The translations under genes and the position numbers were made by a program. Source: a virus. From it: 64,000 nt of DNA. This document shows positions 29,853 to 48,708 of the stretch, piece by piece. The notes below the pieces were generated by a model. It did not search any database. It was not told the origin of the DNA and worked only from the letters and a program-made list of their open reading frames with translations. The DNA lies in IMG/VR virus record IMGVR_UViG_3300022602_000033; one strand, written 5' to 3'. Positions within the stretch are counted from its first letter, which is position 1, and each line of letters opens with the position of its first letter.

Positions 29853-32800
29853 TTACTGGCTGTCTAACCTTGCACGCAGGTCATCTACCTCAGATTTCAG
29901 CTGTTTCACAGCTTCTATCAACAGAGCCGTCAGCTTCTCGTACTGCACGGTAAGATAATGCTCTCCGCTGGCACTGCCTGTACCATCTGGTGATCTATCA
30001 AAGGGTGCGGGACGCACCGCTTCTGGCAACACAGCCTGTATTTCCTGTGCTATCACACCAACATCACGAGTGTACGCTGGGGTAAAGCCCAGAGGTTCAG
30101 ATTTGGCTAGATCCCAGTCAAACATCACGCCATTTATCTTGCTCAGCTTGCCCAGCGCATCGGTAATGGTGGTCACGTTGTTCTTGAGGCGCGCATCAGA
30201 GCTATATGCCGTGATTTCACCTGTAGCAGTGATAGCACCGTTGTGTGCAGTAGTGGTGGCATTTAGTGTTAGACCAGCTGATGTTCCAACGATTGAAGCC
30301 CATTGTACAGTCACAGCATTGTTGGTAAATTGCAGGATTCCCTGGGTACCAGAACTGCTGGGAGTGATACAAATCGCTCGTCCTCCAGCATCAAAATTTG
30401 TAGAAATTAAAGCATCTGTGGTACCAGTGGTTCTGAGACCATTGAAGGTAGGTGTGGCACTAGTGGCAACGCTCTGCCCGATGCTGATGGTTATAGCTCC
30501 TGTATATGGACCACTGCCTGTTCCTGAGATTGTTACCCCGGTGCTGGCTGCAGCGCTGCTAACGCCAGCTGCGGCTGGGACAGTGCCCCAGCTTGGTGCA
30601 CCACCTGTGGTAGCTATCAGGATCTGTCCAGTGGTACCAGCTGCTGTAGCTGCAGGAGCAGCGCCTGCACCACCTCCATAAATCACGCCATTCTGCGTGA
30701 GCGCAGCACTGCTTGCCCATTGCGAGGCTGAACTAAAGTATGGTATGCCTCCACTAGTTCCAGCCACAGTCAATGCCAGCGTGCCGCTTGAGGTTATGGG
30801 TGAACCGCTCACGCTAATCAATCCACCTGTGAATGTCTGGGCCACGCTGGTAACTGTGCCAGTGCCTGTACCTAGGGCCACACCGTTAACGTAATAGGTG
30901 CCGCTGACGTTGATGTCGCCACTGACGTCAACCTTGTATGCAGGAACCGAGACACCAAAGCCAACCTTACCGCTGGTATTGAAATAGAGGATGTCATGTG
31001 TGTCGCTGCCTGTGCCAATCTCAAGCGTGGTATAGAGGCTGCTGAACCCGCCCTGATACCACTTGATCCATGCACTGCCGCTGGCACCGCCGGGGTTGGC
31101 AGGCCATATTATGCCATGCACACCATCTGCGCTGTTGGTGCTGGTGCTTGGTACTATGGCGCCACCCTGTATCAGAGTGAGGTCACCTCGCACGTTTACT
31201 TGGCTGTTGGTGCTGCCGATGCCCAGGCTCTGAGGACCTATGCGCAGTTGATCAACAGCATTAGCAGTGAATGCAACCACGTTGCTGGCCTGCCTATACA
31301 TACCTGTGCTTGGTGCACCCAGCCATGAATAAGATGGTATTGAAACAGTGTCGCTGGCATTGCCAAAGTGCTGGCGAGCCACATAGACGTTGCCGCCTGC
31401 GATGAAGTTGTTGCTGCCGCCAAGTGTTGTGGTAACCACCGTGCCAACAGCCACGTTGCCGCCCAGCGAACCCGTTGGGCCATAGTAGATGTCGTTGGCA
31501 TTTGGTGCCACCTGGTTGGACCATTGGCTGGAACCAGTGGCACCTGTGGCACCTGGACCCGTGGGACCTGTGGCACCTGTGAGACCAGTGGCACCAGTGG
31601 CACCTGTGGGACCACCGCTGGGTCCTGTGACGCCTGTGGGACCTGTGACACCTGTGGCACCAGTAGGGCCGCTTGCTGTGCTGCCAGCACCAGTTGGGCC
31701 TGTGACACCTGTGGCACCAGTAGAACCAGTGGCACCTGTGGGACCACCGCTGGGTCCTGTGACGCCTGTGGGACCAGTATAACCAGTTGGACCTGTGGTT
31801 CCAGTACCCACACCTGTGGGACCTGTGTATCCTGTGGGACCAGTGGGGCCTGTGGCACCAGTGTTTGATGCTAAGCCTGCTGCGCCAGTGGCACCTGTGG
31901 GACCAGTGTAGCCTGTGGGACCACCACTGGGACCAGTGACGCCAGTAGCACCAGTGGGACCGGTGTAACCTGTGGGTCCGCTTACTGTGCTGCCAGCACC
32001 AGTTGGACCACTTGGACCTGTTGGACCTGTGGCACCAGTGTTAGACGCTAGACCTGGTGCACCGGTAGAACCTGTGGGACCAGTGGGTCCACTTGGACCT
32101 CCGCTTGGACCAGTTACCCCAGTGGGACCTGTGTAGCCAGTATAGCCTGTGGGACCAGGTACTGTGGATGTAGCGCCTGTGGCACCTGTGGGACCAGTAT
32201 ATCCAGTGGGACCAGTGGCACCAGTGATGCTTGCTCCAGTAGCACCAGTGGCCACAGGACCAGTTGGACCAGTGTAACCAGTTGGACCAGTATATCCAGT
32301 GGGACCTGTTACCACGCTGCCCGCGCCTTGCGCACCAGTGGCGCCAGTCTGACCAGTTGGACCAGTTGGACCTGTCACAGTAGAAGTGGCACCTGTGGTA
32401 CCCTGAGGACCAGTTGGGCCAGTGGCACCAGTTGGACCTGTGATGCTTTCACCCGTGGCACCTGTGGCAGCCGGACCAGTTGGCCCTGTGGCACCTGTCA
32501 CGCTAGGACCAGTTGGACCTGTGGTCACGCTTGTAGCACCAGTAGCACCAGTGGCACCGGTGGCACCTGTTGGGCCTGTTGCACCTGTGGCTCCGCTAGC
32601 ACCTGTGCTAGCAGGACCAGTCGGTCCTGTATCCCCAGTTGGACCAGTTGCGCCTGTTGGTCCAGTTACTGTAGAGGTTGCGCCTGTGGCACCAGTGTAT
32701 CCAGTTGGTCCTGTGGCGCCTGTGGGGCCAACGATGCGGCCCACATTGAGAAATCCATTGATGTTGCCTGGGGCACTGCTGTTTGAATAGGCCCAGAGAT

Positions 32801-47998: not shown

Positions 47999-48708
47999 TT
48001 GTGTGCCTCGATGTATATGTCTAGGTCCTCTGGCATGCCTATGGGCCAGTGCTCCTGCGGTGGGTAGATGCCAATGCGATCGCCTCTGGCAATGTTCCAA
48101 TTATACACTGGACAAACATAGAACTCTCCATTTACACGTACATCATCTGCGATCATCTGCTCAGCTGCCCACACAAAATCCTCACCTCGAGTCCACACAT
48201 AGATGCCAGTGGTAGCATGCGGGCTGATAACCTGTTTCTCTGCGGTGCGCATGGCCAATCCGCGATCATCAACTTCTACATAGCTGTAGGCAGTGGTGTC
48301 CTTGAAGAACGTGAGCATGGCACCGTCCAGTCGCTCAGCAACTAACCACTCTTCAAAGTGATCTTGGTCCCAGACCATCATCTGGTCGCAGTTGGCTATG
48401 AACAGCGTTTCCTTGGGTTTGATGTACTGGCGGGCCAACAGGCAGGTCTCTGCTGCTCCTTGCGTTACCTGATCCACGAACACGAGGTTGAGATCAGCTG
48501 CCATGCCTCTGAGCTGGGCGAACAGCGCAGGATCAGCATCATAGTGCTCGCGCAGCACGCACAGCGTGAACGTGTTGTGCAGGCCCAGATTCTCCAGCAC
48601 ATGCTGTACCATGGGCTTGCCAAAGAATTCTATCAGTGGTTTTGGTTTAGCGTAACCCTGTTGGGCGAACCGTGAACCTCGCCCGCTCATGGGTATGAGT
48701 ATGTGCAT
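47995..48708 (-). CDS. Sugar nucleotidyltransferase, BcbE-like GT-A fold
   Basis: IPMSGRGSRF..GY..PKPLI, TQGAAETCL, IANCDQ, AEKQVIS.HAT.GIY, RVNGEFYVCPVYN, IG.PEDL. Confidence 0.85.
   Translation of the reverse strand: MHILIPMSGRGSRFAQQGYAKPKPLIEFFGKPMVQHVLENLGLHNTFTLCVLREHYDADPALFAQLRGMAADLNLVFVDQVTQGAAETCLLARQYIKPKETLFIANCDQMMVWDQDHFEEWLVAERLDGAMLTFFKDTTAYSYVEVDDRGLAMRTAEKQVISPHATTGIYVWTRGEDFVWAAEQMIADDVRVNGEFYVCPVYNWNIARGDRIGIYPPQEHWPIGMPEDLDIYIEAHK

Follow-up and report, generated by a model that had tools for sequence, protein, structure and literature searches.

Why does a giant phage keep two tandem glycosyltransferase genes in the middle of a cluster of collagen-like fibre genes? The question is raised by a 64,000-nt stretch of the virus record IMGVR_UViG_3300022602_000033 (the window), which belongs to a giant, uncultured freshwater phage related to the T4-like cyanomyoviruses. 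Cyanophage virion proteins match a structural protein of 1097 aa encoded in the window at 37-40% identity, and most of the large open reading frames (ORFs) match tail-fibre families of the PHROGs database. For this locus, the first-pass annotation had suggested that the phage glycosylates its own fibres with enzymes combining a glycosyltransferase family 2 (GT2) domain with tetratricopeptide repeats (TPR). The present analysis indicates that this is probably the case, and that the enzymes acting on the Thr-rich collagen fibres would be of the type of SgtA from Clostridioides difficile. Homology, fold, genomic linkage and conservation carry this reading; we infer which molecule is modified, when, with which sugar and to what advantage. 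By comparison with other genomes and enzymes, the suggestion gains from the full-length homology to SgtA, from the folds of peptide glycosyltransferases and from a Thr-specific link to collagens, but it does not extend to the cultured jumbo phages of the PaBG group.

The four collagen-like ORFs described in the first-pass annotation are present in the window. Collagen triplets were counted only in runs of at least four Gly-X-Y. Fibre protein A (29853..35201, minus strand, 1782 aa) contains 320 triplets, 248 of which have Thr at Y, and fibre protein B (35713..39888, minus strand, 1391 aa) contains 27, with Thr at Y in 20. On the plus strand, the fibre-type protein C (53816..55150, 444 aa) has four short collagen tracts (23 triplets, 15 with Thr at Y) and the fibre-type protein D (55164..57368, 734 aa) has two (12 triplets, 7 with Thr at Y). 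Thr predominates at Y over the four proteins (290 of 382 triplets, 76%), while it makes up 12% of the residues outside the tracts (binomial p ~1e-182). The commonest triplets are GPT (113), GAT (69), GST (34) and GYT (29), the same as listed before. The earlier count of hundreds of triplets holds for the total but not for an even spread, as 85% of them are located in protein A and the tracts of B, C and D are short.

Protein A starts with a short N-terminal region and continues with interrupted collagen over about 1150 aa, a non-collagen region and a C-terminal Peptidase_S74 domain, an intramolecular chaperone domain typical of fibres and spikes. In protein B, two short collagen tracts (residues 151-245) precede a large non-collagen body, which matches tail-fibre PHROGs. 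The Pfam family Collagen (PF01391, cut-off 27.2 bits) is reached by A (309 bits) and B (36.2 bits), protein C lies just under it (25.4 bits) and D has no match. Both A and B are conserved in the related contigs L394-L398. Based on the tail-fibre PHROG matches and the Peptidase_S74 domain of A, the four proteins are putative virion proteins. A and B can be classed as Gly-X-Thr (GXT), BclA-like collagens with a predicted triple helix, and protein A is proposed as the main sugar acceptor.

Flanked on both sides by these collagen genes are the two tandem GT2-TPR paralogs noted before, which are located at the end of a nucleotide-sugar cassette. Paralog 1 (GT1; 44342..45412, minus strand, 356 aa) has a GT-A domain (residues 1-170) and a helical TPR-like domain (174-355). 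Paralog 2 (GT2; 43281..44375, minus strand, 364 aa) keeps the DTGSTD and DxD motifs. The two SgtA-like proteins are 35% identical over the full length. In Pfam, they score 20.6 and 21.3 bits with Glycos_transf_2 (PF00535), under the gathering threshold of 23.3, and their TPR matches are also under the gathering score. Since many close homologues carry a precomputed PF00535 match, we regard this as borderline and not as an exclusion. The AlphaFold2 (AF2) model (pLDDT 95.3) predicts alternating strands and helices in residues 1-170, corresponding to the GT-A domain, and eleven helices in 174-355, without a membrane segment. TPR structures and consensus TPR proteins match the C-terminal part in comparisons of fold and of sequence with the Protein Data Bank (PDB). 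The motifs DTGSxD, DxD (D83xD85) and H..HE (H143-E144) are invariant in an alignment of 51 sequences that includes both paralogs. A match of the TPR part to the peptide-binding domain of prolyl-4-hydroxylase (E 0.004, under the cut-off) was rejected as evidence in spite of the attractive analogy, because TPR families cross-hit.

The family is large. More than 800 homologues were found in metagenomes, and at least 567 viral loci encoding the enzyme were confirmed among the 600 pattern matches listed. Both paralogs match PHROG 13126 over the full length (E 1e-84 and 4e-86, profile positions 1-361 of 394); its name, 'beta-1,4-glycosyltransferase', is an annotation and not a demonstrated activity. 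Four viral members are part of longer open frames of 537-906 codons (L390:5599-7356, L391:4580-6970, L392:3290-4900 and L393:3480-6197). No enzyme-collagen fusion was found in these four frames, in which the extra length consists of non-collagen N- or C-terminal extensions.

Which acceptor such enzymes use is best judged from the closest characterised homologue. In the 358 aa of C. difficile SgtA, residues 1-260 form a GT-A domain and residues 262-358 four TPRs, and the sgtA gene is located directly upstream of bclA3 (Aubry et al., 2020, PMC7157674). In vitro, recombinant SgtA with Mn2+ transfers beta-O-linked N-acetylglucosamine (GlcNAc) from UDP-GlcNAc onto Thr of peptides from the GPT region of BclA3, and the O-GlcNAc signal of spores is lost in a delta-sgtA mutant (PMC7157674). 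We identified sgtA by the published forward primer; the ORF of 358 aa ends with the sequence of the reverse primer and is followed on the same strand by a collagen ORF of 696 codons (BclA3), in which Thr occupies Y in 110 of 144 triplets. SgtA matches paralog 1 with a BLASTP E of 2e-14 and paralog 2 with 9e-11, at 22% identity over residues 1-350, and its alignment with the family profile also extends from end to end (hhalign 99.5%, E 2.5e-22, 337 columns). As SgtA aligns over the full length with both paralogs, the window enzymes are distant full-length homologues of an enzyme that performs the proposed reaction.

The two systems are alike in protein size (358 versus 356 and 364 aa), in the order of GT-A and C-terminal TPR domains, in the DTGSTD, DxD and W..P.HE motifs and in the genomic link to a collagen with Thr at most Y positions. 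They differ in the acceptor, which is a spore surface protein in C. difficile and would be a phage tail fibre here. SgtA uses the housekeeping donor UDP-GlcNAc, whereas the window contains tandem paralogs and a dedicated nucleotide-sugar cassette. The sgtA gene adjoins bclA3, whereas the window enzyme genes are not adjacent to collagen genes. The window enzymes belong to a sister clade of SgtA, which is common to alphaproteobacteria and phages.

Solved structures lead to peptide-modifying enzymes as well. The best Foldseek matches, nearly over the full length, were the peptide glycosyltransferases ThuS and SunS (PDB 7msn, 7msp, 7msk; E 5e-16 to 2e-13), and the next glycosyltransferases were TarS, WrtF and TarP at E ~1e-6. 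SunS was also the best glycosyltransferase among the PDB sequence matches. SunS and ThuS share the arrangement of a GT-A domain and a helical TPR-like domain, and SunS itself is prophage-encoded. However, they are only 15-17% identical to the window enzymes and S-glycosylate one Cys of a small peptide. Membership in the SunS family (TIGR04195) was not found (17.9 bits against a curated NCBIfam cut-off of 350), and the likeness is one of fold only. GmaR, the flagellin O-GlcNAc transferase of Listeria (PDB 22ao), also combines a GT2 domain with TPR and acts on a fibrous surface protein, but it is larger and bifunctional, and its sequence matched only weakly and locally (E 0.08, residues 21-86). 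The earlier statement that enzymes of this architecture are protein or peptide glycosyltransferases is borne out by SgtA and SunS/ThuS and much less by GmaR.

The same matches could speak for a different acceptor, which might be some other protein of the virion or of the host, or else a small secreted peptide, with the collagen neighbourhood as a by-product of gene traffic in fibre clusters. GmaR acts on flagellin, and SunS and ThuS act on glycocins. In addition, mycobacteriophages glycosylate their own capsid and tail proteins with phage enzymes, according to the work of Freeman et al. (2023) as cited in PMC12582341. That system resembles the one proposed here in that phage-encoded glycosyltransferases decorate the structural proteins of the phage itself. 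Against a glycocin-like acceptor, SunS family membership fails, and no gene for a glycocin-like precursor was seen next to the window enzymes.

A further possibility is that the enzymes act on the O-antigen, cell-wall glycan or capsule of the host and alter its envelope during infection to prevent superinfection. This is the usual reading of glycosyltransferases in host-recognition clusters of aquatic myophages (PMC7029224; PMC10202952), and PHROGs places the enzyme family in the category 'moron, auxiliary metabolic gene and host takeover'. However, the nearest homologue of known activity and the nearest solved structures act on peptides or proteins and not on glycans or lipids, and the AF2 model contains a TPR domain and lacks a membrane segment.

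Whether the family is associated with collagens beyond the window was analyzed in the best 80 viral loci and in 80 bacterial loci. In the window, the enzyme pair has its nearest collagen genes 3.4 kb downstream and 8.4 kb upstream. A collagen ORF lies within 10 kb in 57 of the best 80 viral loci. At least 3 kb of upstream sequence is available for 62 viral loci, and in 45 of these a Thr-rich collagen ORF is found within 10 kb; in 33 loci such a Thr-rich ORF precedes the enzyme on the same strand by no more than 3 kb, and in 15 it ends within 400 bp of the enzyme start. Among the bacterial loci, 51 of 80 show a collagen ORF near the enzyme (Mesorhizobium, Bradyrhizobium and many Clostridia), and Thr is the commonest residue at Y in nearly all of them. 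When only loci with adequate flanks are considered, a Thr-rich collagen is present within 10 kb in 47 of 60 viral and 47 of 66 bacterial loci, covering Bacillota, alphaproteobacteria and phages. In many Clostridia, the GXT collagen gene ends just upstream of the enzyme gene. On the rhizobial chromosomes of Mesorhizobium (L307, L310, L312 and L318) and L309, collagen-like proteins of up to 1568 codons with 378 triplets and 98% Thr at Y are encoded 5-10 kb from a GT2-TPR gene whose product is 46-50% identical to the phage enzyme. Tandem enzyme pairs were also detected in three of four Bacillota genomes checked, namely Sinanaerobacter (G194:C61:27112-29284), an Anaerovoracaceae metagenome-assembled genome (MAG; G195:C1:3377423-3379591) and a Sedimentibacter MAG (G196:C10:44051-46227). 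Such pairs are thus recurrent and could stand for a glycan assembled in two steps.

In a FastTree phylogeny of 169 family members rooted on SgtA, nearby GXT collagens occur in three clades: Bacillota, paralog 1 together with alphaproteobacteria, and a large actinophage-like viral clade. Paralog 2 branches apart, at the base of the paralog 1/alphaproteobacterial and actinophage-like clades (support 54). All major clades show the collagen link except the PaBG-like clade. The Actinomycetia phage DSL-LC01 has the gene order collagen, collagen, hypothetical protein, halogenase, enzyme. It is a metagenome-assembled genome and not an isolate, and its authors do not comment on the collagen-enzyme arrangement (PMC10611076). 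No cultured phage with a close form of the module was found. The halogenase-annotated gene of DSL-LC01 (L300) lies at 7433-9004 beside the GT2-TPR gene, and in ten further viral loci (L004, L005, L006, L009, L016, L025, L027, L029, L030 and L041) a homologue of this tryptophan halogenase gene likewise directly adjoins the GT2-TPR gene on the same strand. Fibre proteins may be tailored by its product as well.

The link is specific to collagens rich in Thr. Viral records were sampled by DNA pattern (six consecutive Gly-X-Thr or twelve Gly-X-Y codon triplets), classed by their Thr share at Y and searched as whole records with the family profile. A full-length enzyme was present in 17 of 96 Thr-rich but only in 1 of 80 Thr-poor collagen-bearing records (odds ratio 17, Fisher p 2.4e-4, kinship ignored). 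As Thr-poor collagens are fibre genes too, this signal argues against mere hitch-hiking in fibre clusters. A Thr-specific link that crosses domains is hard to explain in this way if the acceptor were some other protein, and remodelling of the host envelope leaves both the tracking of Thr-rich, not Thr-poor, collagens and the linkage on bacterial chromosomes unexplained.

Several points weigh against glycosylated fibres, in addition to the low identity to SgtA (only 22%) and the PHROGs category mentioned above. In the window, the enzymes are at least 3.4 kb away from the collagen genes with an opposite-strand block in between, and do not share an operon with them. As accessory genes often gather in fibre clusters, neighbourhood alone is weak evidence. 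The co-occurrence statistics ignore kinship, and most of the 80 viral loci come from few related lineages. Their enzymes show a median identity of 58% and many loci share flanking genes with DSL-LC01; single-linkage grouping by shared flanking families resulted in one component, so that no count of independent lineages is possible. Among the sampled viral records with GXT collagen and at least 90% completeness, only about one third carry the enzyme and about two thirds do not. Most GXT-collagen phages manage without the enzyme or use something else. The reverse case is a complete genome of 217 kb that encodes the enzyme but lacks any stretch of four successive GXT codon triplets.

The cultured jumbo phages PaBG, Lu11, HRDY3, NCTB and Alexandra (L301-L305) also count on this side. 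They hold distant homologues (25-33% identity) in the gene order NAD-dependent DNA ligase, hypothetical protein, enzyme, prohead protease, without an adjacent collagen. Their genomes contain 0-3 short GXT matches each, and the homologues branch at the base of the tree. The fixed place between ligase and prohead protease suggests that the acceptor in this group may differ and is conserved, possibly a head or tail protein. The co-occurrence of GT2-TPR genes and GXT collagens that had been proposed for testing across jumbo phages is thus seen in the closer subfamily and missing in these cultured phages. The enzyme-collagen link is not obligatory. Both the PaBG-like phages and the genome lacking GXT tracts favour a different protein or peptide acceptor, which is possible especially for the PaBG-like branch; overall, we consider this explanation unlikely.

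If the fibres are glycosylated, a donor sugar is needed, and the cassette is a plausible source. It consists of tightly packed minus-strand genes between the two collagen pairs. The first gene (48768..49484, TTG start) encodes a protein of 238 aa with one hydrophobic stretch and without family match, which is conserved in relatives. It is followed by a sugar-1-phosphate nucleotidyltransferase of 237 aa (47995..48708), the likely producer of the nucleoside diphosphate (NDP)-sugar donor, and by a 141-aa protein (47675..48100), named 'cupin' in the first-pass annotation, which has no Pfam match but is conserved in the cassette. The RuBisCO-like protein (RLP; 46536..47678, 380 aa) is under every NCBIfam equivalog cut-off and occurs in six of eight related contigs. 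A protein of 157 aa (46061..46534), previously called 'GDPD-like', is without Pfam or NCBIfam match and also conserved in the cassette. The last gene before the enzyme pair encodes a DUF7796 protein (45414..46115, 233 aa) of a mostly viral family, which is always part of the cassette and for which the Atlas search returned unnamed viral clusters only.

Five related contigs (46-518 kb) keep collagen A, collagen B, the opposite-strand PhoH-PRTase block, the enzyme pair, the cassette and DnaJ; in two contigs of more distant kinship, the cassette and the enzyme pair are still found together with the DnaJ/Clp neighbours. PhoH had been tried as a random-gene control; only seven close relatives were returned, which is useless as a control but informative on lineage conservation. 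The cassette occurs in different versions. While six contigs contain the RLP, L396 and L003 lack it and encode a nucleotidyltransferase of 366-367 aa fused to a HAD phosphatase domain. This alternative cassette (L396:15428-19084, L003:5992-10004) occupies the same place as positions 45414-48708 of the window, with PhoH being 56-90% identical. L396 also contains a third GT2-TPR paralog, in which the DxD motif reads D-M-H. The module can do without the RLP, the putative supplier of a special sugar in the first-pass annotation, since it is absent from these two related contigs, and the RLP and the sugar-phosphate phosphatase appear to be alternatives at one step of a sugar-nucleotide pathway. In the alphaproteobacterial MAG L315, the nucleotidyltransferase and the 141-aa protein have homologues (42% and 36%, respectively) that are located beside the enzyme and a GXT collagen. 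Together with the conservation of the cassette beside the enzyme pair, this makes a role in donor-sugar supply plausible. Among 50,697 phage records, neither a DNA match to the cassette nor a protein match to the RLP was found.

It is a tentative and rather doubtful idea that the RLP pathway provides an unusual sugar as the building block of the fibre glycan, and that the cassette is swapped among kin while enzymes and fibres are kept, which would result in an exchangeable virion coat. A polysaccharide-modifying system would equally need a nucleotide-sugar cassette, and the hydrophobic stretch in the first cassette product would be in line with a function at the host envelope. In view of the protein-directed homologues and the Thr-rich collagens described above, we nevertheless rate envelope remodelling as quite improbable.

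The timing of expression was judged from promoter-like motifs. The octamer CATAAATA, similar to T4-type late promoters, is located at 35226..35233 (minus strand), some 25 nt before the start of the gene for protein A. It recurs at 49492..49499 (minus strand), directly upstream of the first cassette ORF. As it is only 7 nt away from the annotated TTG start there, either this start or the promoter reading is uncertain. CTAAATA is found at 39916..39922 (minus strand), 28 nt upstream of protein B, at 53787..53793 (plus strand), 23 nt upstream of protein C, and also before the fibre genes starting at 29802 (minus strand) and 57436 (plus strand), in all four cases 20-45 nt upstream. It has 6 matches against 2.4 expected, and none of 100 shuffles reached 6. 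According to the T4/cyanomyovirus consensus, CTAAATA and CATAAATA are candidate late promoters. In that case the cassette would be expressed together with the structural genes, which fits modification of the virion better than modification of DNA or of the host early in infection.

This bears on a third possibility, that the enzymes glycosylate phage DNA against restriction. DNA glycosylation is a common role of phage glycosyltransferases. However, no DNA glucosyltransferase is among the fold or sequence matches listed, the TPR domain and the SgtA homology point to protein acceptors, and a late-type motif and a position in the fibre cluster are ill-suited to an early DNA-modification gene. We therefore consider DNA as acceptor to be extremely unlikely.

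The canonical T4 late promoter TATAAATA was rejected as a mark of fibre genes. Its sole exact copy in the window (39969-39976, plus strand) is located 28 nt upstream of PhoH, in the divergent gap shared with fibre B, and suggests that the opposite-strand PhoH-PRTase block may also be late-expressed. Between this plus-strand block and the convergent minus-strand cassette, a G+C-rich inverted repeat (43001..43024) was read directly from the sequence, possibly a two-way terminator. A small open frame of about 75 codons (43035-43262, minus strand), read by eye and too short for the ORF lists, follows paralog 2; it is preceded by CTAAATA at 43269-43275 and followed by the hairpin at 43001-43024.

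Glycosylation of the fibres by the phage could proceed as follows. Late in infection, the cassette would produce an NDP-sugar in the host cytoplasm, with the nucleotidyltransferase, the cupin-like protein, the RLP, the GDPD-like protein and the DUF7796 protein probably acting together. Both enzymes would be soluble and would act as protein O-glycosyltransferases of the SgtA type, inverting and dependent on a divalent metal bound by DxD. Inversion is proposed because GT2 enzymes are inverting and SgtA forms a beta linkage. At least one of them would transfer the sugar to the Thr hydroxyl at Y of Gly-X-Thr, mainly in protein A, as long as the chains are nascent or unassembled, and the TPR-like domain would probably hold the extended acceptor chain. 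The second paralog may extend the glycan or cover other X residues or acceptor contexts. The chains would then trimerise, in protein A with the aid of the C-terminal chaperone domain. In this way the fibres would come to bear collagen stalks covered with glycans, and this coat would be likely to influence the stability of the triple helix, the solubility or the recognition of surfaces.

Several elements of this scheme have precedents. Gly-X-Thr collagen-like filaments with O-linked glycans from dedicated sugar pathways are present in BclA of Bacillus anthracis and in the fibrils of Mimivirus. The Mimivirus enzymes are of a different type (hydroxylase/glucosyltransferase), and the likeness drawn here is at the level of description. 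In mycobacteriophages, the acceptors are reportedly the C-terminal tails of capsid and tail-tube subunits and not collagen tracts. Self-glycosylation of virions, as far as the citing source of the mycobacteriophage work goes, and the SgtA-BclA3 pair of spores are thus already known. In a literature search, no publication was found that links SgtA-like enzymes with phage fibres. Particular to the window is the tandem pair in a T4-like giant phage together with a dedicated RLP cassette that is swapped in related contigs.

If the proposed reaction takes place, collagen-like tail fibres of phages would be glycoproteins made by SgtA-type enzymes of the phage itself, and the same module would be present in hundreds of uncultured phage contigs. 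Common 'auxiliary' glycosyltransferases of phages, now called modifiers of host lipopolysaccharide or DNA, would have to be re-annotated, and self-glycosylation of virions would reach beyond mycobacteriophages. In the cuticle collagen of Riftia, glycosylated Thr stabilises hydroxyproline-free helices. Glycosylation would likewise give a concrete reason for the frequency of hydroxyproline-free Gly-X-Thr collagens in phage fibres. The enzyme and a GXT peptide would be a simple pair for glyco-engineering of collagen-like materials. If the cassette is exchanged as suggested above, it would represent a variable surface trait of the virion, comparable to the switching of O-antigens in bacteria.

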